DNA of 55,433 nt, taken from the NCBI GenBank assembly GCA_038044405.1, contig JBBTAC010000002.1, positions 1-55,433 of the forward strand, written 5' to 3'. How positions within the stretch are numbered: position 1 is the stretch's first letter; every line of letters begins with the position of its first letter. Source of the DNA: Nanobdellota archaeon. Its GTDB lineage: Archaea > Nanobdellota > Nanobdellia > Pacearchaeales > GW2011-AR1. The notes under the pieces are model-generated. The model was not told the DNA's origin and searched no databases. It saw only the letters and a program-made list of their open reading frames with translations. Below are positions 14,963 to 29,769 of the stretch, piece after piece. Position numbers and translations under genes: made by a program.

Positions 14963-17900
14963 ATGGCAGAAGAGAATGTTATGAACGGCAATGGATATGA
15001 AAACGGCAATAGCAATGGATATGAAGATAAAAGGATATTTGTACAAAGATTAGATTCTATAAAACGTTCAATGCAGATTGAAAGATATTTTACTCAAGAA
15101 AACAAAAGTCCATTTATATACGGTATTAATGGAAAGCCTTTAAACTGGATTTCAGAAGATGTTAACGTTACAGATGATAGGGGAAAGTTAATATTTACCC
15201 AGCCAAGTGTTAGAAGACCTGATTTTTGGAGTCCTTTAGCGATTAAAGTAGTTGCGAGCAAATATTTTTGGGGCGACCAAGCAAAAAATGAAAGGGAGAA
15301 TACAGTAGAAAAATTAATAGGCAGGGTTTCTAGGTTTATAGGAAGACAATCATTAAAACAAGGATACTTTAACGAAAAAGAAAGCAGTATACTTCAAGAT
15401 GAGATATCGGCTATATGTTTAAATCAATTATGTGTTTTTAATTCTCCTGTTTGGTTCAATGCTGGAATTCAAGAATATCATCAAGAAGCAGGAGGCGTTT
15501 CAGCTTACGTCTGGGACGAGACAACTAAGGGCATAATAAAATCAGATAAAGCAATGGACAGACCACAATGTTCAGCATGTTTTATTTTAAGCGCAGAAGA
15601 TAATATGGATTCTATAATGGCTGTGCAGACTGCAGAGGCTAATTTATTTAAGGCAGGCTCGGGAACAGGAACAAATCGTTCTAATTTAAGAAGTTCAAGA
15701 GAAAAATTAACAGGAGGAGGAAGAGCTTCAGGACCTGTAAGTTTTATGAGAGGTTACGATGCATATGCCTCTGTTATCAAATCAGGAGGCAAGACTAGAA
15801 GGGCAGCAAAAATGGAAATATTAAATATAGACCACCCTGATGTAATGGATTTTATTAATGCAAAACAAACTGAAGAAAAAAAGGCATGGGCTTTAATTGA
15901 GCAGGGTTATGGTGGTGGAATGAATGGAGATGCATATGGCAGCGTTTGTTTCCAGAATTGCAATATGTCTGTAAGAGTTTCAGACGAATTCATGAAAGCT
16001 ATAAAAAATGATGGAGAATGGCAGACAAAATTTGTAAAATCAAATGGAGTATGCGAAACTTTTAAGGCAAGAGATATATTGGACAAAATAGCAGAAGGAA
16101 CTTGGATTTGCGGCGATCCAGGAATACAATGCGATACAATCATAAACAAATACCATACTTGCAAAAATTCAGGAAAGATAAATGCATCTAATCCATGCGT
16201 AACTGGAGACACAAGAATTTTAATAGAAGGAGGTAAATGGGTGAGAATTGACTCAATTTTAGATAAAGAATCAAATATTTTAACTAATACAGGGATTATT
16301 CAAGAATCAAAAATAAATGGTTCATTTAAAACAGGTAGAAAACCAGTATACAAATTAACAACGAAAAGTGGATACGAAATGAAATTAACTTCTGACCATA
16401 AAGTATTTACAATAAATAGGGGATTTGTTCCAGCATGCGAACTTACTAAAGATGATTATATATTGCTTCCAGCTTATAATGTGTCTGAGGTTGTAGAACC
16501 AGAAGATAAGAATTTTTATCAGATGTTAGGAGTTTATCTGGGAGATGGGCATGGCGGGATGAATAGCGAAAGTATACAGTTAACTATGAACAAAGAAGAA
16601 GAAATACCAATATTAGAAAGATTTGCTGAATATGTTGCAACTAACTATGAAAGAATAACTCACAAAAACTCTCCAGCAACTGTAAGAATTACACCTACTT
16701 CTTGCAAGTATAGCATTACTAATACATTTGTTATTAATAAATTCAAAGAATTTGTTGATTTATCTTTATTAGGGCATGAAAAATATATATCTAATAGAAT
16801 ATTTAGTTTAGGTTTAGGAGAGCAGAAATATATCTTACAAGGGTTATTTAGTTCTGATGGAACTGTTGCAAATTATGGGGAAAAATCCCAATATGTCTCT
16901 TTAGATTCTACAAGTTTACAATTATTGAAAGATGTTCAGCTTATTTTATTAGGATTTGGAATTAAGAGCAAACTGTATAAAAATAGAAGAGCTGGAAAAG
17001 ATAAAGCTTTCTTGCCAGATGGAAGGGGCGGATTAAAAGAATATAACGTAAAAGAAATGCATTCTTTAAGAATTTCTAGATCAGGAAGAATAAAATTTGA
17101 AAGATTAATAGGATTCATGCCGGAATCTAAGAAGGGCGAGAGACTTAGAAAGATGAATGAACAAATTGGCGTTTATAACGATAAACCAATTGATGCCGTT
17201 GAGTCTCTTAATTATATTGGAGAAGAAGAGGTCTACGACTTAACTGAGCCATTGACACACAGTTTTGTAGCAAATGGTATTACAGTTCATAATTGCTCCG
17301 AGTATATGTTCCTTGATGACACGGCTTGTAATTTAGCATCAATTAATCTAATGAAATTTAGAACAGAAAATGGCGGATTTGATGCAGAGGGTTACAAGAA
17401 AGTTGTTAGATATTTTATAACTGCTATGGATATTTTTGTTGATGGAGCAAGTTATCCAACTGAAAAAATTGCAGAAAGGTCGCACATTTTCAGAACATTG
17501 GGATTAGGCTATGCAAATCTTGGAGCATTGTTAATGTCTTTAGGCTTACCCTATAATTCCGACTCAGGAAGAGCTGTTGCAGCAGCAATAACTGCAATAA
17601 TGTGCGGAGAAGCATATAAAGCCAGCGCAGAACTAGCAAGATTAGTTGGACCATTTCCTGGATTTAAAGATAATAGAGAAAGCATGTTGAATGTTATTAG
17701 AATGCATAGAGAGCATGTTAAAGAAATAGACGTCGAAAAAATACCTGTCGATTTAAGAGATTTAGTAAATATAGCCTGGGATTGCTGGAGTGAAGCTCTA
17801 GAACTAGGCGAGAAATATGGATTTAGAAACGCACAAACAACTGTTCTAGCGCCAACCGGAACAATTGCATTTATGATGGATTGCGACACAACAGGTATAG

Positions 17901-18949
17901 AGCCAGACATTGCCTTAGTAAAATATAAAGTCCTTAGTGGAGGAGGCATGTTAAAGATTGTTAATGGCTCAGTCTCCTTAGCATTGAAGAAATTAGGATA
18001 TAATGAATTTGAAATTAAGAACATTATAGAATACATTGATAAAAATGATACTATTGAAGGAGCTCCTTATCTAAGAGATGAACATCTCGATGTATTTGAT
18101 TGTGCGTTCAAACCTGCAAATGGGAAGAGGGCAATCAATTATAAGGCGCATATTGATATGATGGCTGTTTCTCAGCCATTTATTTCAGGAGCAATTAGCA
18201 AGACAGTTAATATGCCTGAAGATTCTACAGTAGAAGATATTGCCAAGGCCTATATTTATGCTTGGGAAAGTAAATTAAAAGCAGTTGCTATTTATAGAGA
18301 GAACAGCAAGAGAAGTCAGCCATTAAATACAAGAAAAACAGAAGGCGAAGTTGTTAAAAAAGTTGAGAAGATAATTGTCGCAAAGAGAATTCCTCTTCCT
18401 CAAACAAGAAAATCTATTACACATAAATTCGATATAGGAGGACATAGCGGATATTTAACAGTTGGACTATATGACGATGGAAAACCAGGAGAAGTATTTG
18501 TTACAATGGCAAAGCAAGGCTCAACAATAAGAGGCTTAATGGACGCTTGGGCTCGCTCTATATCTTTAAACTTGCAATATAGTGCGACTATAAACGAGCT
18601 ATTTGGAAAATTCAGGCATCAAAAGTTTGAACCTGCTGGATTTGTTAAAAATGAAGGTGGAGGGTCAATTGATGAAAAAGTAAAGCCTATCAGAACAGCA
18701 TCATCAATAGTAGACTATGTTGCTCAATTCATGTTGAATAATTTTGGAATTAGTGCCGGAAAAGTTCAAGTAGACATTGAACCAGATTTAGAAATTAAAG
18801 ATGCAATTGATGAACAAGCACAACTTAATGAGTTTTCTAATGAGGGATTAATCTGCTCATTCTGCGGCGGCACTGCAAAAAGAATTGGAAATTGTGCAAT
18901 TTATTGCACGAGCTGTAATCAAACCCAAAGAAGCGGATGTGGAGAATAA
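14963..18949 (+). CDS. nrdJ: Class II (B12-dependent) ribonucleotide reductase NrdJ, interrupted by an in-frame intein
   Basis: N-terminal FWSPLAIKVVASKYFWGD. The active-site loop SNP|C...|CSEYMFLDDTACNLASINL is split by the intein. C-terminal Cys cluster CSFCGG...CAIYCTSCNQ. Confidence 0.95.
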   Translation: MAEENVMNGNGYENGNSNGYEDKRIFVQRLDSIKRSMQIERYFTQENKSPFIYGINGKPLNWISEDVNVTDDRGKLIFTQPSVRRPDFWSPLAIKVVASKYFWGDQAKNERENTVEKLIGRVSRFIGRQSLKQGYFNEKESSILQDEISAICLNQLCVFNSPVWFNAGIQEYHQEAGGVSAYVWDETTKGIIKSDKAMDRPQCSACFILSAEDNMDSIMAVQTAEANLFKAGSGTGTNRSNLRSSREKLTGGGRASGPVSFMRGYDAYASVIKSGGKTRRAAKMEILNIDHPDVMDFINAKQTEEKKAWALIEQGYGGGMNGDAYGSVCFQNCNMSVRVSDEFMKAIKNDGEWQTKFVKSNGVCETFKARDILDKIAEGTWICGDPGIQCDTIINKYHTCKNSGKINASNPCVTGDTRILIEGGKWVRIDSILDKESNILTNTGIIQESKINGSFKTGRKPVYKLTTKSGYEMKLTSDHKVFTINRGFVPACELTKDDYILLPAYNVSEVVEPEDKNFYQMLGVYLGDGHGGMNSESIQLTMNKEEEIPILERFAEYVATNYERITHKNSPATVRITPTSCKYSITNTFVINKFKEFVDLSLLGHEKYISNRIFSLGLGEQKYILQGLFSSDGTVANYGEKSQYVSLDSTSLQLLKDVQLILLGFGIKSKLYKNRRAGKDKAFLPDGRGGLKEYNVKEMHSLRISRSGRIKFERLIGFMPESKKGERLRKMNEQIGVYNDKPIDAVESLNYIGEEEVYDLTEPLTHSFVANGITVHNCSEYMFLDDTACNLASINLMKFRTENGGFDAEGYKKVVRYFITAMDIFVDGASYPTEKIAERSHIFRTLGLGYANLGALLMSLGLPYNSDSGRAVAAAITAIMCGEAYKASAELARLVGPFPGFKDNRESMLNVIRMHREHVKEIDVEKIPVDLRDLVNIAWDCWSEALELGEKYGFRNAQTTVLAPTGTIAFMMDCDTTGIEPDIALVKYKVLSGGGMLKIVNGSVSLALKKLGYNEFEIKNIIEYIDKNDTIEGAPYLRDEHLDVFDCAFKPANGKRAINYKAHIDMMAVSQPFISGAISKTVNMPEDSTVEDIAKAYIYAWESKLKAVAIYRENSKRSQPLNTRKTEGEVVKKVEKIIVAKRIPLPQTRKSITHKFDIGGHSGYLTVGLYDDGKPGEVFVTMAKQGSTIRGLMDAWARSISLNLQYSATINELFGKFRHQKFEPAGFVKNEGGGSIDEKVKPIRTASSIVDYVAQFMLNNFGISAGKVQVDIEPDLEIKDAIDEQAQLNEFSNEGLICSFCGGTAKRIGNCAIYCTSCNQTQRSGCGE
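16196..17293 (+). mobile_element. Intein (366 aa) with LAGLIDADG homing-endonuclease domain, inserted at the NPC active-site cysteine of NrdJ
   Basis: Begins CVTGDTRIL (block A, Cys1). Has TSDHKVF (block B TxxH). Two LAGLIDADG motifs: LGVYLGDGHG and LQGLFSSDGTV. Ends FVANGITVHN, followed by the +1 Cys of CSEYMF. Both boundaries are in frame with the host ORF. Confidence 0.9.
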
Positions 18950-18993: not shown

Positions 18994-19314
18994 ATGAAGA
19001 TGGTTGCTAAAAATTTAACTTCTAAGACATTTAACGACTTCATAAAAAACGGAGTCAGTATAGTTGATTTTTCAGCAGATTGGTGTATGCCTTGCAAAAT
19101 AATGAGCCCTATTGTAGATGAAACTGCAAATAAAATAAAAAATGCAAAATTTGGAAAAGTTGATGTTGACAAAGAAACTGAATTAGCGCAGAGATTTGGT
19201 GTAATGAGTGTTCCAACATTATTATTTTTCAAAAATAAAGAGCAAATTGATATGACTGTAGGAGTTGTATCAAAAGATGAACTAATTAAAAAAGTAGAAA
19301 AAATGTTGAAATAA
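18994..19314 (+). CDS. trxA: Thioredoxin
   Basis: 106 aa. Active site FSADWCMPCK (CxxC = CMPC). Conserved VPTLLFF. Lies 45 nt downstream of nrdJ. Confidence 0.9.
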   Translation: MKMVAKNLTSKTFNDFIKNGVSIVDFSADWCMPCKIMSPIVDETANKIKNAKFGKVDVDKETELAQRFGVMSVPTLLFFKNKEQIDMTVGVVSKDELIKKVEKMLK

Positions 19315-20558: not shown

Positions 20559-20951
20559 TTATCTTAATGCATAACCAAATATAACCAATAAAATATTAAT
20601 CACATAAATTAGAGAACAAATTATACAGAAATTTTTCAATTTAAAAAAAGAAACATAAGCTAGATATATGGTAAATAATAAAGAAATAATTGAAAAATAA
20701 AAAAATATTTTTGGATATCCTATAATTGATAAAATTATAATCATGATATAAAATCCTATTCCTGCCAAGGAATTTGATATGCCAAACATCTTCCCATAAG
20801 AACTTGAAAATGCTTTTGTGCATGACGCATTATTGCCGATGTCGCAAACAGCTTTGTATTTTTTATTTTCTCTAGTCTTTCGCTCAATATAAAAAGCATA
20901 AATTGACAAAAACACGCCTATAATTGATAAAATTATAATTATGTTAATCAT
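20559..20951 (-). CDS. Vitamin K epoxide reductase (VKOR) family membrane oxidoreductase
   Basis: 4-TM profile. Loop cysteine pair CDIGNNASC followed by SSSYGKMFGISNSLAG. Redox CxxC (FCIICS) in the last helix. Confidence 0.8.
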   Translation of the reverse strand: MINIIIILSIIGVFLSIYAFYIERKTRENKKYKAVCDIGNNASCTKAFSSSYGKMFGISNSLAGIGFYIMIIILSIIGYPKIFFYFSIISLLFTIYLAYVSFFKLKNFCIICSLIYVINILLVIFGYALR

Positions 20952-21139: not shown

Positions 21140-21346
21140 ATGCACATCCTTCAGCCCAAACACACAAAGTTAAAGACAGAAGAAGTAAAGAAATTATTAG
21201 AAAAATACAATATAACTGTTTCTCAATTACCATATATAAAGATAGACGATCCTGCTATTCCTCAAGGTTGCGTTAAAGGAGACGTAATTAAAATAGAGAG
21301 AAAAGAGGGAGACAAAATAGTCTTATATTTTAGGGTAGTGGTATAA
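21140..21346 (+). CDS. rpoH: DNA-directed RNA polymerase subunit H (Rpo5)
   Basis: 68 aa. HILQPKHTKL...LPYIKIDDP...GDVIKIERK...YFRVV pattern. Lies immediately upstream of rpoB. Confidence 0.9.
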   Translation: MHILQPKHTKLKTEEVKKLLEKYNITVSQLPYIKIDDPAIPQGCVKGDVIKIERKEGDKIVLYFRVVV

Positions 21347-21347
21347 A

Positions 21348-24300
21348 GTGGTAAAGAAAGAAAATATTTTAATTGAGAAATATCTGAAGCAGCATTCACT
21401 TGTAGAATCAAACATTCTTTCTTTTAATGACTTTATTAACAATAGAATGCAGGATATCGTAAACGATATAAACCATTCTCTTAATCAAGAGGAAGTCGAA
21501 GTTAAGATTGGAAAGGTTAAAATTGGCAAGCCAAACATAATAGAAGCTGACGGAAGTTCAAATATATTGACACCTATGATTGCTAAGATAAGAGGTCTAA
21601 CCTATTCTGCGCCAGTTTTTGTTGAATTAAGCGTTCGATACGGAGAACAAAGCGATGATGCCGAAGTAGAAATTGGTAGAATTCCAATAATGGTTAGAAG
21701 CGCAACATGTACAACTCATGGAATGAATAGGGAAGATTTAAGAGAAAATTATATGGATCCTCTAGACCCTGGCGGATATTTCATAATTAACGGTAATGAG
21801 CGAATAATAGTAATGTCAGAGGACTTAGCCCCAAATCAATCATTTATAGAAAAAGGCAGGCAAGGACTAACTTTAAAGATATTCTCGCAAAAAGGATCAT
21901 ATAGAATTCCAACAACAATCTCGGAAACTAATGAAGGAATATTAGAATTAACATTTAGCAGATTAAGAAATATTCCGGCAATTATACTGCTTAAATCATT
22001 AGGTTTAGTCAAAGAAGCAGATATAGCAAAGCATGTTGAGCATGAAAATGATTGTTTAATAGTTAATTTATATGAATTTGGTAAAATACAAAATCCAGAA
22101 GATGCAATGATGTATGTTGCAGAAAAATCGGGAATTCAAGGCACTAAAAAAGAGATTCTAGAAAGAGTAAAACAGAGAATAGATTCTTTTCTGCTTCCTC
22201 ATATAGGGATGGATAAATCACTAAGAACAGAAAAGGCCTTAACACTATGCAGATTTATTCGCCTCTATCTAAAAGCAAAAGAAGATAAAAAGATTAGGAC
22301 AGATAAAGACCATTATAAAAATAAGCGTGTCAAACTATCTGGTGATTTGATGTCAGATTTATTTAGAGTTAATTTTGGTATATTAATAAGAGATATACAA
22401 TATTCGTTGCAAAAGGTTTCAAAAAGAAAGAAATTTTATTCATTAAAGACTATCTCAAAGTCAACATTGTTTTCACATAGAATTGAAAGTGCAATAGCTA
22501 CTGGTTCTTGGATTGGAGAAAAATCAGGCGTAACTCAGAATATGGAAAAGAACAATTATATGGCGGTTCTTTCTCAATTACAAAGAGTCACAAGTCTTCT
22601 TCCAGGAGATCAGGAAAACTTCAAGGCAAGAACACTTCATCCAACACATTATGGAAGATTCTGCCCTACAGAAACTCCAGAAGGTATAGAAATAGGTTTA
22701 AGAAAAAATCTTGCTATAATGACAAAGATATCTACAGATATAATATTTGAAGAGAAAGCAGTTATAAAAAAATTCAAGGAAGCTGGTTTGCAGGAAGAAA
22801 AAGGAAAAGACTTATTTTTCAATGGGCGTTTCATAGGATTTGTTAAAGAACCAATGGTATTCGCTAATAACATTAAAAGATTAAGAAGAGCTGGAGAGTT
22901 GCCTGGCGAAATGAGTATCATGCACGATGAAATATTAGATTTAATAACAATTTCAACAGAAGCAGGAAGAGTTTTGCGCCCATTAATTGTCATAGAAAAT
23001 AATGCGAGCAGATTAAAAGACGACCATCTTGTAGAATTAGAAGAAGATAAGATAAGCTGGAAAGATTTGATTAAAGAAGGAATAATAGAATATATTGATG
23101 CTGCTGAAGAAGACAATGCCTTTATAGCGCAAAATCCTCAAGAAATAACATCAGAGCATACACATCTTGAAATTCACCCAATAGATTTATTTGGTCTAAT
23201 AACAAGTTTAGTTCCTTTTGCAAATCACGACCAAAGTTCAAGACTCAACAGAGGAAGCAAGACACTTAAACAAAGTCTTGGAATATACGCTGCAAATTAT
23301 CTAGTAAGACTAGACAGCAATGTTTCTATATTGCATTATCCACAAAAACCTTTGGTAAGAAGTTTCGTTTATGACACACTTGAAGTATATCCTGCTGGTC
23401 AAAATATTATTGTTGCAATTATGCCTTACGAAGGTTATAACATGGGAGACGCTATCGTAATAAATAGAGAAAGCGTAGATAGGGGCATGGGTAGAAGTAC
23501 ATTCTTCAAACCATATGTTTCAGCAGAGTTGCATTATCCTGGAAGTTTGAACGACGAAATAACTATTCCATCCAAAGATATCTCTGGCTATAGAACAGAA
23601 CAATCTTACAAATATTTAGAAGATGACGGTATTGCATATCCAGAGGCCAATATCAAAGCAGGAGATGTTATAATAGGTAAAACAACACCTCCTAAATTCT
23701 TAAGTGAAGCAAGAAATATAACTATTCAGGCAAAGAAAGAAGCTAGCGTAGCCATGAAGCAAGAAGAAGAAGGTATTATTGATGCAGTATTTATAACTGT
23801 AAATAGCGAAGGAAATAAAATTGTCCAGGCAAGAACAAGAGACCAGAGATTACCAGAGCCAGGAGATAAATATTCAGCTCCACATGGTCAGAAAGGAGTT
23901 ATTGGTATGCTTGCAGATGGCAGAGATATTCCATTTACAGGCTCGGGCACAAAACCAGATCTCTTATTCAATCCGCACGGCATCCCTAGCAGAATGACAG
24001 TTGGATATTTGATAGAACTTTTAGCTGGAAAAACAGCAGCAACTACCGGAAGAATTGTTGATGGTACTCCATTTACAGGCTCAACAGTTGATGAATTAAA
24101 ATCACAATTACACGAAATGGGATTCCGTTCAGATGGAAAAGAGACAATGTACGATGGAGTTACAGGAAGAAGAATGGACGCGCATATTTACATAGGAAAT
24201 ATGTATTATCTTAAACTTGTAAGAATGGTAAAGAACTTGCTGCACGCAAGAGCATCTGGAAAAATAGCTTTATTAACAAGACAGCCAATTGAAGGTCGTT

Positions 24301-24596
24301 CAAGAGGCGGAGGTTTGCGTCTTGGAGAAATGGAACAGCAAGCACTAACCGGTCATGGTGCTTCTCTATTGTTAAAAGAAAGATACAGCTCAGATAAGAC
24401 AACAGTTTACGTATGCAAGGAATGCGGTAATATGACTTATGAAGATGTTATAAGAAATAAAACTCCTTGTAATCTATGCGGAAGCAACGAATCAGACCCT
24501 GTAGAAATATCTTATGCGTTCAAGTTATTAGTGGACGAATTACTCGGCCTTGGCATATTAACTAAATTCACTTTGAAAGATAAATACGAGAGATAA
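21348..24596 (+). CDS. rpoB: DNA-directed RNA polymerase subunit B (unsplit), GTG start
   Basis: 1082 aa. Motifs GRFCPTETPEG, SAPHGQKG, PSRMTVG, GEMEQQAL. C-terminal Zn ribbon CKECGN...CNLCGS. Confidence 0.97.
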   Translation: MVKKENILIEKYLKQHSLVESNILSFNDFINNRMQDIVNDINHSLNQEEVEVKIGKVKIGKPNIIEADGSSNILTPMIAKIRGLTYSAPVFVELSVRYGEQSDDAEVEIGRIPIMVRSATCTTHGMNREDLRENYMDPLDPGGYFIINGNERIIVMSEDLAPNQSFIEKGRQGLTLKIFSQKGSYRIPTTISETNEGILELTFSRLRNIPAIILLKSLGLVKEADIAKHVEHENDCLIVNLYEFGKIQNPEDAMMYVAEKSGIQGTKKEILERVKQRIDSFLLPHIGMDKSLRTEKALTLCRFIRLYLKAKEDKKIRTDKDHYKNKRVKLSGDLMSDLFRVNFGILIRDIQYSLQKVSKRKKFYSLKTISKSTLFSHRIESAIATGSWIGEKSGVTQNMEKNNYMAVLSQLQRVTSLLPGDQENFKARTLHPTHYGRFCPTETPEGIEIGLRKNLAIMTKISTDIIFEEKAVIKKFKEAGLQEEKGKDLFFNGRFIGFVKEPMVFANNIKRLRRAGELPGEMSIMHDEILDLITISTEAGRVLRPLIVIENNASRLKDDHLVELEEDKISWKDLIKEGIIEYIDAAEEDNAFIAQNPQEITSEHTHLEIHPIDLFGLITSLVPFANHDQSSRLNRGSKTLKQSLGIYAANYLVRLDSNVSILHYPQKPLVRSFVYDTLEVYPAGQNIIVAIMPYEGYNMGDAIVINRESVDRGMGRSTFFKPYVSAELHYPGSLNDEITIPSKDISGYRTEQSYKYLEDDGIAYPEANIKAGDVIIGKTTPPKFLSEARNITIQAKKEASVAMKQEEEGIIDAVFITVNSEGNKIVQARTRDQRLPEPGDKYSAPHGQKGVIGMLADGRDIPFTGSGTKPDLLFNPHGIPSRMTVGYLIELLAGKTAATTGRIVDGTPFTGSTVDELKSQLHEMGFRSDGKETMYDGVTGRRMDAHIYIGNMYYLKLVRMVKNLLHARASGKIALLTRQPIEGRSRGGGLRLGEMEQQALTGHGASLLLKERYSSDKTTVYVCKECGNMTYEDVIRNKTPCNLCGSNESDPVEISYAFKLLVDELLGLGILTKFTLKDKYER

Positions 24597-24597
24597 A

Positions 24598-27500
24598 ATG
24601 CAATTAGAAAATTTCAGAAAACAAGTTAGATCATTGAACTTCAGTTTGCTTAGTCCAGAACAGGTTAAAAGACTTAGCGCAGCTAAAATAGTAACGCCAG
24701 AATTATATGATATCGATGGTTTTCCAGTAGATGGTGGATTAATGGACTTGCGCCTTGGAGCTATAGATCCAGGTGTTCGATGTAGAACTTGTGGAAAGCG
24801 CCTTAGAGAATGCTCTGGCCATCCTGGAAGTATAGAACTAGCTCGCCCTGTTTTCCATATAAAGTATATACAATTAATTGAACATTGCCTTAGAAGCTTT
24901 TGCCCATCTTGTGGTAAGTTAACTCTATCAGATGAAAAGCAAAAAATTTATGGTCCCGCAGAAAGAGCCAAAAAAGCAAGGGACGCTAAAAAGTGCGCCC
25001 ATTGCAATGAAGTTATAGAGCGAGTAAAATTAGAGAAGCCTACAACATTTATGTCAGGAAAAAAAAGATTAAGCCCAATAGAAGTTAGAGATAGAATAAT
25101 AAAAGTCCCAGATGAAGAATTAAAAAAGACAGGCATAAATCCAAAGACAGCACGTCCAGAATGGGCCGTTCTTTCGCTTTTATTAGTTCCTTCAGTTACA
25201 GTAAGACCAAGTATTACTCTTGAAGAAGGAACAAGAAGTGAAGATGATTTAACTCACAAATTATCAGATATAATCCGAGCAAATCAGAGATTATGGGAAA
25301 ATCTAAACGCAGGAGCTCCGGAAGTTATTATCGAAGATTTATGGGATTTATTGCAATATCATGTTACAACATTTTTTGATAATAATATTTCAAGAATTCC
25401 CCCAGCAAGACATCGTTCTGGACAGCCATTAAAAACAATCACCGAGCGTATCAAAGGAAAAGAAGGAAGAATAAGAGCAAACTTATCAGGTAAAAGAGTA
25501 AATTATTCAGCACGTACAGTTATCTCGCCAGATCCTTATCTTAAAATCAACGAAATAGGCGTTCCCCTAGCTATCGCAAAAACAATTACAGTAGCTGAGC
25601 CAATTACAACTATAAATATAGAATTTATGAAAGAAGTTGTAAAAAAAGCAGAAGAGTATCCTGGCGCAAATTATGTAATAAGAACTGATGGAAAGAGGAA
25701 AAGAATTACAAAGGATCTAAAAGAAGAAATATGCGCAGAATTAAAGCCAGGTTATAGAATAGAAAGACATCTTAAAGACGGAGATGTAGTATTATTCAAT
25801 CGTCAGCCAACATTGCATAAACAAGGACTTATGGCGCATTTCGTAAAAGTATTGCCTGACAGGACATTCAAATTACATCCAGCATCAGCCTCACCATATA
25901 ATGCAGACTTTGATGGAGATGAAATGAACCTTCATTGCCCTCAAACAGAAGAAGCACAAGCAGAAGCAAAAATATTATTAGATATAAATAACAATATAAT
26001 TTCTTCAAAAAACAATACAAATTTAGTTGGAACAGTAGACGACGCAATTACCGGATTATATGTCTTAGGAAAAGAAGAATTTGATAAAAATGAAGCAGAT
26101 CAATTATTATATACTATAGGCATAGCAAATTCAAATAAGAAGAAAAGAATTTCAGGTCATGAAATTTTCTCGCAAATAATTCCTAAAGGATCAGAAATTA
26201 CAATACCAAATGCAATTTCAAGTAAATCTAGTTTTGGAGTTGAGGATGGAGAAATGGTTAAACTATTGGACAAAGAATTTGGCAGAGAAATTACAATAGA
26301 TTGTATTGATAAAGCATTTATGTTAGGAACACAATATTTGACAAGACACGGTTATTCTCTTTCATTAGACGACCTTAATGTTCCAGAGAAGGTAAAAGAA
26401 TTAACCGTAAGCATCTTAGCTAGAGCAGACATAAAAACAAAAGAGATTATAGAGAGTTACAAAAATGGCAAGTTAGAAGCAATGCCAGGAAAAACATTAG
26501 AAGAAACTCGTGAAAATAAAATCTTGCAAGTCTTGAATGAAGTCAGAACAGAAATAGGAGAAGCTGTTAAAGAATATTTCCCAGCAGACAGCAATGTAAG
26601 CAAGATGATTAATTCAGGTGCTAGAGGCAGTTTATTGAATATAACTCAAATAGGTTGTTGTGTAGGTCAGCAAGCTCTTTGGGGAAAGAGAATTAGTTTC
26701 GGTTACAATGACAGAACTTTATCTTTCTTCAAAAAAGGAGATTTAACTCCTGCCGCTCAAGGTTTCATAAAATCTTCATTTTTCAAAGGACTCATTCCTA
26801 CAGAATTTTTCTTTGGCGCAATAACAGGGCGTGATAGTCTAATGGACACAGCATTGAGAACTCCAAAGTCAGGTTATTTGCACAGAAGATTAGTATATGC
26901 GTTGCAAGATCTTAAAATAGAATATGACATGACAGTAAGGGACGCATCAGAGCATATTGTTCAGTTTGCATATGGCGACGACAGTAAAGACATTTCTAAA
27001 TTGCACTTGCACGATTCAAAAGTTTCTCCAGCAGAGGCAGTAGGAATTGTAACAGCACAATCATTTGGAGAAGCATCAACACAGATGGTTTTGAACGTAT
27101 TTCACCATGCAGGTATATCCCAAATGCAGGTTACACAAGGGTTGCCAAGATTAATAGAACTAATTGATGCAAGAAAACAGCCATCAACACCATTAATGGA
27201 GCTTTATTTAGATAAAGAGCATAACAACGAAAAAGATGCAAGAATAATCGCAGAAAAAATTAAAGAAGTAAAACTAAAAGACGTCTTGTCTGAAATTAAA
27301 ATAGATTTTAGCAACAAAAGAATAGAAATAATCTTGGATAATAAAGCCGTTCGAGCAGCACACATAACTCCAGCAATTATTGCAGAAAGATTAAAAGATA
27401 AAGGGTTAAAGATAAAATCAAGTGACCTAAGACTAAGTATAGACACAGCAGAATTGGATTTCAAAGCAATATACAAGTTGAAAGAAAAAATTAAAGAATT

Positions 27501-28050
27501 AATAATTTCTGGTGTAAAAAATATATCCCAAATATTTGTTTCACAAAGAGAGAAAGATTTTGTAATAGTTACAGCAGGTTCTAATCTAAAAGATATCTTG
27601 GATATAAAAGGTATAGATGTCAATAATGTAACTTCAAATGATATATTTGACGTTATGAATGTTTTTGGTATAGAAGCTGCTCGCCAGACAATAATTAATG
27701 AAATAAAAAAAGTTATAGAAAGTCAGGGTTTAGACATCAATGAGAGGCACATTAAATTGATTGCAGATGCAATGGCAGTATTAGGAACAATAAAAGGAGT
27801 TACACGTATGGGAATAATATCTGATAAAGCAAGCATATTAGCAAGAGCGACTTTTGAAACACCTGATAAACAATTTATTGGCGCAACATTAAAAGGTCTA
27901 AAAGAAGAATTGAACTCAGTAATAGAAAACATTTTATTGAATCAGCCAATTCCTGTTGGCAGCGGCCTGCCAGGTTTGTTAGTTAAGGTAACAGGCCCTC
28001 TTGTAAGAAAAGGCGACAAAGATGCCAAGAAGCGCGCTGAGGAAGAATAG
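24598..28050 (+). CDS. rpoA: DNA-directed RNA polymerase subunit A with A' and A'' portions fused in one ORF
   Basis: N-terminal Zn motifs [16 protein letters not shown] and CPSCG...CAHCN. Catalytic [12 protein letters not shown]. A'-end-like FAYGDDSKD runs without a stop into the A''-type trigger-loop region [26 protein letters not shown]. Confidence 0.95.
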   Translation: [1150 protein letters not shown]

Positions 28051-28086
28051 ATTTAAAAAAAGATTCTTAAAAAACCTAAATTTAAA

Positions 28087-28208
28087 ATCAAGAAGTCCTT
28101 GTATTTTTGTCTGAACTCATCAAAGTCTTATAGACCTTGAATGCCATCAAGAATCCGACTTTAGAAGATTCTTGAGGTCTGGATGCTCAAGATTGCATCT
28201 TGACATAA
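28087..28208 (+). repeat. Multi-hairpin intergenic repeat element, copy 2 (122 nt)
   Basis: 28087-28194 is 107/108 identical to 5784-5891. The terminal hairpin is shortened to CAAGAT-tgc-ATCTTG (28188-28202). Same ACATAA end. Lies between the rpoA stop (28050) and the nusA start. Confidence 0.9.
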
Positions 28209-28253
28209 AACAAAAAGATAGATTTATATACCTTATTGCAAAATAATAATAAG

Positions 28254-28670
28254 ATGACGACGATAAATATGCAGACGTTGGTTTATATTAATCTATTAGA
28301 TAAGGCCTCTCACGTTAAAACAAAACAATGTTTTGTCTATAATAATACTATTTTCTTTGCTGTTCCAAAGCAATTAGTTTCTCAAGCTATTGGCCCAAAT
28401 GCCTCTTATGTAAAAAAGATCAGAGATAATTTAGGAAAAAAAGTTAAGATTATAAGCGCTCCAGAAGGCCCAGAGGAAATGCAAAAATTCATTGAAGATA
28501 TTGTCTCCCCAACTAAATTCAAGTCTTTAGAAATAAGGGATAATACAGTAATTATCACAGCCGGAAGCAATCAAAACAAAGCATCCTTAATAGGGCGAAA
28601 TAGGAGAAGATTTTCTGAAATGCATAAAGTTATTCACGACATTTTTAATATGGATTTGAGGATTGTTTGA
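28254..28670 (+). CDS. nusA: Archaeal NusA-like transcription termination/antitermination factor (two KH domains)
   Basis: About 138 aa. KH-like segments AIGPNASYVKKIRDNLGKKVKII and LIGRNRRRFSEMHKV. Canonical position between rpoA and rps12. I chose the ATG at 28254 rather than the TTG at 28236 used by the ORF track. Confidence 0.8.
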   Translation: MTTINMQTLVYINLLDKASHVKTKQCFVYNNTIFFAVPKQLVSQAIGPNASYVKKIRDNLGKKVKIISAPEGPEEMQKFIEDIVSPTKFKSLEIRDNTVIITAGSNQNKASLIGRNRRRFSEMHKVIHDIFNMDLRIV

Positions 28671-28723: not shown

Positions 28724-29149
28724 ATGGGATTAATGAATGCACGCAAAATTGGAAAGAATAGGAAAAATAGTAGATGGGCGGATCATAAATATAAAGTAAG
28801 AACGCAAAATCTAAGAGTAAAGTTCGATCCTCTCGGAGGCAGATCATTTCAAGCAAGAGGCATTGTTATAAGTAAATTTCAAAAAGAAGCAAAACAGCCA
28901 AACTCTGCAATGAGAAAATGCTGCAAAGTACAACTAATAAAAAATAACCTTCAAGTAGGAGCATTTATCCCTGGAAATCTTGCTCAAAAGTTCGTTGATG
29001 AGCACGATGAAGTTTTAATAGAAAGAATTGGCGGAAAAATGGGCCGTTCTAAAGGAGATATCCCAGGAATAAGATTCCAAGTTATAAAAGTAAATGATCA
29101 GCCATTAAGAAGATTGTGGAAAGGTCAGATAGAGAAGGGAAGAAGATAA
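28724..29149 (+). CDS. rps12: 30S ribosomal protein uS12
   Basis: KQPNSAMRKCCKVQLIKN, IPGIRFQVIKVN. 141 aa. Confidence 0.95.
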   Translation: MGLMNARKIGKNRKNSRWADHKYKVRTQNLRVKFDPLGGRSFQARGIVISKFQKEAKQPNSAMRKCCKVQLIKNNLQVGAFIPGNLAQKFVDEHDEVLIERIGGKMGRSKGDIPGIRFQVIKVNDQPLRRLWKGQIEKGRR

Positions 29150-29151
29150 TT

Positions 29152-29769
29152 ATGGAAAAAACACAGCTCCCAGAATTGAAATTTAAATTATTTGACATAT
29201 ACGATGCTTCAGAAGCTGTAATAAAAGATCAAGCTTTAAAGCCATATATTAATTTAGATAATAAATTATTGTTAAAATCTTATGGCAGAAATCTAGAGAA
29301 ATTCGCAAAAATAAGAGTTAATATTTTAGAGCGTATGGCGAATAGATTGGCAGTTCCAGGCCATGTAGGAAAGAAGCATAAAATAATTACATCTTGGAGT
29401 TCAGGAAAATATAATAAAAATATGTCTACAATATTTAAAGCATTAAATATTATAGAAAGAGTAACAAAGAAAAATCCAGTTCAAGTTTTAATAGATGCAA
29501 TGGAGAATGGCTCTCCAAGAGATGAAATAACAGTTATAGAGCACGCAGGAGCAAGATATCCACAGGCAGTTGACAGTTCTCCAATGAGAAGAATTGATTT
29601 AGCAATTCGCTGGATTGTACAAGGTTCATACCAAAGATGTTTTGGTAAGAAGAAGAAAATGGCAGAATCTTTAGCAGATGAAATAATTAAAGCCTCTCAA
29701 AATAATATGGAAAGTTATTCAGTCAGTAAAAGAAATGAAGCTGAAAAACAAGCTGATTCTGCGAGATAA
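29152..29769 (+). CDS. rps7: 30S ribosomal protein uS7
   Basis: Archaeal S7 pattern (ENGSPRDEITVIEHAGARYPQAVDSSPMRRIDLAIRWI). I chose the ATG at 29152, just after the S12 stop, over the upstream in-frame ATG at 29116. Confidence 0.93.
   Translation: MEKTQLPELKFKLFDIYDASEAVIKDQALKPYINLDNKLLLKSYGRNLEKFAKIRVNILERMANRLAVPGHVGKKHKIITSWSSGKYNKNMSTIFKALNIIERVTKKNPVQVLIDAMENGSPRDEITVIEHAGARYPQAVDSSPMRRIDLAIRWIVQGSYQRCFGKKKKMAESLADEIIKASQNNMESYSVSKRNEAEKQADSAR

Follow-up and report, generated by a model that had tools for sequence, protein, structure and literature searches.

A 55,433-nucleotide stretch of DNA from a Nanobdellota archaeon (GCA_038044405.1, contig JBBTAC010000002.1, positions 1-55,433, forward strand; hereafter the window) encodes the largest subunit of RNA polymerase (RNAP) in one unsplit gene, rpoA. 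The A' and A'' parts of the subunit, which split systems make from two genes (rpoA1 and rpoA2), follow each other here in a single open reading frame (ORF). Very probably this is a functional largest-subunit gene of the Pacearchaeales, a DPANN order, that would have arisen by in-frame joining of rpoA1 and rpoA2 in the ancestor of the order.

The fused gene is a published, order-wide lineage marker and not a discovery. Da Cunha et al. (2017, PLoS Genet) treat secondary events as rare and name "a secondary fusion in Pacearchaeaota" among them (text and S29 Fig; PMC5484517), and a 2021 paper on the Nanoarchaeum RNAP (Front Mol Biosci; PMC8204694) has two pacearchaeal sequences with A' and A'' as one polypeptide. 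The gene in the window is itself no different from those: the lineage is the same, a single ORF runs over the canonical split site, and the reading as a secondary fusion is shared. Two other sources (PMC13473441 and a 2026 Nanobdellota preprint) deal with RpoA only as a marker or as a paralogy issue, not with its architecture. To these papers we add a count across the order, the anatomy of the junction at the level of residues, a check of the junction in reads and contigs, a later fusion of rpoB, and at least three other fusions of rpoA within DPANN. The recurrence across DPANN and the order of events, rpoA and then rpoB, are the sole parts that may be new; a literature search on recurrent DPANN rpoA fusions or rpoB re-fusion returned nothing relevant, and the pattern may still have been published.

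Structure of the fused gene

The gene and its parts, all on the + strand, are the following.

24598..28050, +, fused rpoA (A' plus A''), 1150 amino acids (aa) plus stop, ATG start
24598..26988, +, A'-equivalent part, residues 1-797, with the Zn clusters, the catalytic loop and the bridge helix (solved A'/Rpo1N alignments, PRK08566)
25900..25920, +, catalytic NADFDGD loop, residues 435-441 (translation; conservation)
26797..26904, +, bridge helix, about residues 734-769, with a nanoarchaeal-type proline, P756 (placed via the alignment of Rpb1 776-878 with residues 700-802)
26989..27018, +, fusion linker of 10 residues, 798-807, in place of the A' tail, the stop/start and the A'' head
27019..28050, +, A''-equivalent part, residues 808-1150 with stop (solved A''/Rpo1C chains align from their own residue 50-56 on)
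27058-27150, +, trigger loop, about residues 821-851, inside the A''-type part

The ORF listing and the translation agree on one frame of 1150 codons with zero internal stops, and the strings on which the original prediction of an unsplit gene was based can all be read in it: a 12-letter motif at residues 435-446, a 13-letter string at residues 790-802, and the string from SPAEAVG to FHHAG at residues 809-838. The A' hallmarks, including the N-terminal Zn motifs, are borne out by conservation. In an alignment of 26 relatives (locus L019, whose rpoA match has one stop outside the junction, was left out) the N-terminal Zn-binding Cys/His clusters C62/C65/C72/H75 and C102/C105/C133/C136 are invariant, and so are D437, D439 and D441 of the NADFDGD loop. 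All five Rpb1 domains of Pfam (PF04997, PF00623, PF04983, PF05000 and PF04998, domains 1-5) are found above cut-off, in order and on a single chain, and the protein matches both the A' model PRK08566 (1029 bits) and the A'' model TIGR02389 (residues 804-1124) of NCBIfam. It is a member of the multisubunit RNAP largest-subunit family (Rpo1/Rpb1/beta').

The bridge helix and the trigger loop can be aligned to the solved enzymes (Rpb1, archaeal A' and A'' chains). Both elements had been assigned to the A''-type region in the original prediction; the trigger loop does lie there, but the bridge helix belongs to the A'-type part.

All 26 relatives share the proline of the bridge helix (P756; residues 755-757, nt 26860-26868), and in the trigger-loop helix the sequence is FHHAG (residues 835-838, nt 27100-27111). 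These are unusual substitutions in the active site, of a nanoarchaeal type that PMC8204694 reports for N. equitans, Pace- and Woesearchaea.

Anatomy of the junction and the missing segment

Structure-sequence comparison places the junction within nt 26,980-27,040, as had been predicted: solved A' chains cease aligning at residues 797-801 and solved A'' chains start at residues 798-807. The alignment of Sulfolobus Rpo1N (880 aa) ends at about its residue 855, which is residue 797 of the window protein, and that of Rpo1C (393 aa) begins at about 51, which is residue 798. In Thermococcus, A' (906 aa) is aligned to 881 and A'' (391 aa) from 56. Thus, some 25 C-terminal residues of A' and some 50 N-terminal residues of A'' in the solved split chains are unmatched in the window protein. 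The split systems (Woesearchaeota-type; Sulfolobus, 2pmz/2waq; Thermococcus, 4qiw; Pyrococcus, 8cro) otherwise share with the window gene the domains, the catalytic motifs and the position in the operon.

The closest split relatives, 26 loci of Woesearchaeota type, tell the same in finer terms. Here the A' tail past the anchor is 19-27 aa long (median 22), the A'' head at the same site 38-64 aa (median 48), and rpoA1 and rpoA2 are mostly 1-2 nt apart or overlapping. Measured against them, the window junction lacks about 18 residues from the A' tail and about 48 from the A'' head, together with the stop/start. The head is an archaea-specific N-terminal domain of Rpo1C, named beta'-aD3 (PMC11515920). 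A short piece of the tail has stayed. The first four positions of the linker are DVSK in the Pacearchaeota consensus and DISK in the window, and the tail of the Woesearchaeota-type loci starts DVSKSEGG.INVKRII. The match marks an in-frame loss of about 190-200 nt that took tail codons, stop, spacer and head codons.

Alignment with Rpb1 points to what the missing segment is. Residues 776-878 of yeast Rpb1 correspond to residues 700-802 of the window protein and residues 1056-1146 to residues 807-896, and for Rpb1 879-1055 (about 177 residues) the alignment shows no counterpart in the window rpoA, which has the linker there. Cramer et al. (2001) reportedly place the foot of Rpb1 at roughly 871-1059. 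The segment absent from the junction accordingly corresponds to the foot, and the archaeal tail and head to a foot remnant. Eukaryotic Rpb1 is a single polypeptide like the window rpoA, but carries in addition to the foot C-terminal heptad repeats, whereas the window protein ends at residue 1150 without repeats.

The fused protein had been suspected to be shorter than A' plus A'', and so it is: 1150 aa vs. 880+393 (Sulfolobus) or 906+391 (Thermococcus). The loss at the junction explains roughly 60 of the missing residues, and the remaining shortening lies elsewhere, for example around residues 530-539, where other families of the order have an insertion. H803 of the linker is invariant in the 26 aligned relatives and Tyr in L041. 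An AlphaFold2 model of the whole protein, built on the 26-sequence alignment, is too poor to give the geometry of the linker (mean predicted local distance difference test score, pLDDT, 57.5; predicted template modeling score 0.35; junction pLDDT <50).

Conservation across the order

The junction was surveyed with residues 735-870 as query, and only junction-spanning matches with zero stops were counted as fusions. Among 141 sampled genomes of the order of the window (9 families, 79 genera), 137 gave a match, and all 137 matches run through the junction continuously and without a stop. Full-length rpoA is one frame across the relatives. The linker is 9-11 residues long and in frame in all 50 loci of Pacearchaeota type with a readable junction. 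The closest loci are labelled Candidatus Pacearchaeota, and some carry the automatic labels Woesearchaeota or Nanoarchaeota. With the fusion present in every close relative and already on record, it is a trait of the lineage and not the novelty that it had seemed it might be.

The original prediction had also raised the worry of an artefact around 26,950-27,050, where assembly or sequencing might have dropped a stop/start pair or a small indel. The genome of the window, a 658-kb metagenome-assembled genome, is indeed fragmented (34 contigs, 85.5% complete). However, the same in-frame junction recurs in the 137 genomes, which come from many projects, and what is absent is about 70 codons rather than a single base. 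Moreover, in Logan contigs of two runs from two studies (X1 and X4, one of them possibly the source sample), 26500-27500 is covered without a single difference or indel. Because the junction is exact in contigs assembled per run, the chance that it is an artefact is negligible. Two further runs cover the stretch in pieces (X6 without 26962-26998, X9 without cover after about 27180), and these gaps were not used.

A few rpoA genes of the Pacearchaeales (L019; G020, G021, G040) have 1-2 stop codons away from the junction, which may be sequencing errors, pseudogenes or recoding.

Origin of the fusion

The original prediction left open whether the gene was never split or was fused secondarily. Ancestral retention would make it comparable to the unsplit A-type genes of Thaumarchaeota, Bathyarchaeia and Korarchaeota, where one gene also serves for the whole subunit. 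Such genes are known in archaea (PMC5484517; PMC3852633), and the two loci of Bathyarchaeia in our comparison (L089, L090) are unsplit. The evidence from the relatives of the window is nevertheless for a secondary fusion.

First, the gene lies among split genes. Other orders of the same class are split at query residues ~802/805. An RpoA tree was made with IQ-TREE from 59 rows, excluding the junction columns (LG+G4, quick search, two Bathyarchaeia sequences as outgroup). In this tree the 12 Pacearchaeota rows, including the window gene (L001), form one clade (Shimodaira-Hasegawa-like approximate likelihood ratio support 100), nested in a clade of support 99 whose remaining members are split rows of Woesearchaeota type, with more split Nanoarchaeia outside. 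A fused clade nested among split relatives argues that the fusion is derived and not retained, and on the gene tree the window rpoA reads as a secondary fusion. It has a single origin, no later than the base of the order. Retention would instead call for several independent splits at the exact canonical site in the sister lineages.

Second, the gene does not resemble those that are truly unsplit. L089 and L090 keep 82 residues between the anchors, and the window gene has 10. The identity of the window rpoA is about 52% to the Woesearchaeota-type genes and ~39% to the unsplit Bathyarchaeia-type genes, which stand as the outgroup of the tree; the gene thus has neither the retained segment nor the affinity of the unsplit A-type. 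Third, DVSK, with which the A' tail starts in the split relatives, also opens the linker in the Pacearchaeota consensus. Of the two origins first considered, that by secondary fusion stands, and retention has become very improbable.

Some seemingly fused frames elsewhere, three in the same class (G058, G059, G124) and two others (G267, G268), turned out, on reading of the DNA, to be interrupted by one in-frame stop where the halves meet.

How the fusion may have formed

The comparisons above show how the gene is built, that it is conserved, that its position is derived and what the missing segment is. The events behind them can be pictured as follows. In the ancestor of the order, the adjacent rpoA1 and rpoA2 would have been joined in frame. 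The join would have removed about 190-200 nt, that is, most of the A' tail, the stop codon, a tiny spacer and the N-terminal head of A'', so that the A'-type residue 797 would now be tied to the A''-type residue 808 by the 10-residue linker. The piece lost, the archaeal remnant of the Rpb1 foot, would be a surface insertion with its two ends necessarily near each other. Nothing in the catalytic cleft (bridge helix, trigger loop, Mg loop) has been touched, and one polypeptide would take the place of two. Loss of the foot remnant was presumably tolerated as part of the reduction of genome and proteins in DPANN.

The fusion need not have formed in one stroke. In a stepwise path the stop codon is lost first, the foot remnant stays intact in the fused gene, and the junction shrinks afterwards. 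In many split DPANN genes a lone stop and 1-4 codons are all that comes between A' and A'', which share a frame (L053, L055, L058, L060, L062, L074, L091-L093), and one point mutation would fuse the halves; such a stop-loss path would thus be easy. Very short junctions already exist in some split lineages (90 nt in L091, 96-105 nt in Micrarchaeota), and the length of the linker varies among fused genes (9-11 aa in Pacearchaeota, 13-19 aa in the 'Altiarchaeota'-labelled order). Against this path, a fused gene with a long junction was found in none of the 137 Pacearchaeales genomes and in none of the 50 loci read. We consider the stepwise path a real though rather unlikely course.

The joining of rpoA1 and rpoA2 with concomitant loss of the foot remnant, which we favor, has points that weigh against it. 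The RpoA tree is a gene tree with a two-sequence root, and fast-evolving DPANN are prone to long-branch effects. The single chain of ~130 kDa is predicted from the gene sequence alone. That 10 residues span the gap is likewise a conjecture, drawn from the nature of the foot as an insertion domain whose two ends adjoin. Finally, the loss may have been one deletion, and present sequences cannot tell one step from several.

In several split loci (L091 of G059, L055 and L074 of Micrarchaeota, G366 and G396) the halves share one frame with a single stop, and 90-105 nt lie between the anchors. These look like intermediates one point mutation away from fusion.

Independent fusions elsewhere in DPANN

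Fused rpoA genes were found in four lineages: the Pacearchaeales, an order sister to the split Micrarchaeota, a subclade of an order labelled 'Altiarchaeota', and a subclade of an Aenigmatarchaeota order. In the order of genome G265 (L068, isolate LFW-156_1; L102-L105), 28 of the 30 matching genomes are fused, with linkers of 2-6 residues. Two more genomes of that order (G306, G309) are fused and have an intein with a LAGLIDADG domain just past the junction, and the remainder of the class is split. In the order of G264, which bears the 'Altiarchaeota' label (L061/L098-L101), the fused genomes number 9 of 31 and have linkers of 13-19 aa, and in that of G266 (Aenigmatarchaeota; L069/L106-L108), 3 of 30, with a 17-aa linker. 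Every fused form retains the start of the A' tail and the end of the A'' head of its own relatives.

The existence of short-linker fused genes in three other DPANN lineages brings in a further source for the gene of the window, namely horizontal acquisition of an rpoA already fused, from another DPANN, from Thaumarchaeota/Bathyarchaeia, or from a eukaryote or virus. However, the RpoA tree places each fused group beside its own split relatives, and the Pacearchaeota RpoA groups with that of Woesearchaeota type, not with other fused genes. Constraining all DPANN fused genes to one clade costs 705 log-likelihood units and is rejected under the model used (approximately unbiased test, p-AU 5e-9). 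In addition, every lineage has linkers of its own length and sequence, which agree with the split genes of its relatives. Acquisition of a pre-fused gene is therefore extremely improbable, slightly more so than ancestral retention. Local, repeated fusion fits better. Since a single origin is rejected and one origin within the 'Altiarchaeota'-labelled order is not (p 0.24), the minimum is four independent fusions.

Inteins interrupt rpoA in several relatives: A'' in L075 and L096, A' in L097, and the fused rpoA in L119 (Pfam). By likeness only, L076 and L086 have the same gap of ~1.6-1.7 kb as L075/L096, L095 has a long frame like that of L097, and L118 has the same insert as L119. One intein site lies just after the junction in the region of the trigger-loop helix and is occupied both in split A'' genes and in the fused genes of G306 and G309; a second is in Rpb1 domain 2 of A'.

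rpoB and the RNAP operon

The genes around rpoA in the operon are the following.

21140..21346, +, rpoH (Rpo5), first gene of the RNAP operon, 68-aa ORF (Pfam RNA_pol_Rpb5_C, 63.5 bits, above cut-off)
21348..24596, +, rpoB, one unsplit gene of 1082 aa, B''-type residues 4-486 and B'-type residues 490-1079
28236..28670, +, NusA-like KH protein, in the operon downstream of rpoA (weak Pfam match to KH_5, 26.4 bits vs. a cut-off of 27)
28724-29149, +, ribosomal protein S12 (Pfam)
29116-29769, +, ribosomal protein S7 (Pfam)

The order rpoH-rpoB-rpoA-nusA-S12-S7 is that of the canonical archaeal operon, with rpoK elsewhere in the genome. In the window rpoB is also unsplit, and its history can be read against that of rpoA (loci compared: L039, L040, L042 and L056-L088). 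rpoB is split at the B''/B' site in the Woesearchaeota-type loci and in three Pacearchaeota loci (L039, L040, L042), which are the earliest branches among the Pacearchaeota rows of the RpoA tree. In the survey of the order, every one of the 95 genomes sampled from family f1 has unsplit rpoB, and so do f2, f8, f9 and most of f5; families f3, f7 and most of f4 have it split, and rpoA is fused in all these families. As split rpoB accompanies fused rpoA in the early-branching loci and in several families, rpoA was fused first and rpoB later, inside the order. The re-fusion of rpoB within the order possibly happened more than once.

Implications

Fused rpoA is a synapomorphy of the Pacearchaeales. 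For annotation, this means that a single rpoA in a genome of the order should not be flagged as a misassembly. More generally, we consider it likely that the A'/A'' split has been undone at least four times in DPANN, with loss of the foot remnant each time and a later re-fusion of rpoB in the Pacearchaeales, and hence that the split is unstable as a rare genomic change. At least four re-fusions of rpoA and the later one of rpoB would make the split/fused character homoplastic in reduced genomes. Arguments for an archaeal root have treated splits and fusions of RNAP subunits as rare genomic changes (PMC5484517). If the recurrence is true, the basis for rooting the archaeal tree by this character becomes weaker, as Da Cunha et al. 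(2017) relied on its rarity. The crown group of the Pacearchaeales, the window included, would also have arrived by convergence at a catalytic core encoded by two genes, as in bacteria and eukaryotes.

In losing the foot remnant again and again, these lineages have in effect carried out a deletion experiment. Its outcome suggests that an archaeal polymerase can work without the A' tail and the A'' head.

Other features of the neighborhood

Many archaea carry an L30e gene between rpoA and nusA. In the window the gap from rpoA to the NusA-like gene (28050-28236) is 186 nt and the L30e gene is absent at that place. Just upstream of the RNAP operon are a thioredoxin gene (18994-19314, +) and a gene for a membrane protein of the VKOR family (vitamin K epoxide reductase-like; 20559-20951, -), which suggest a disulfide-bond system in this small genome. 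Further upstream, a gene at 14963-18949 (+) encodes a ribonucleotide reductase of 1328 aa interrupted by an intein that has a LAGLIDADG homing-endonuclease domain (Pfam Intein_splicing, residues 419-777; LAGLIDADG_3).

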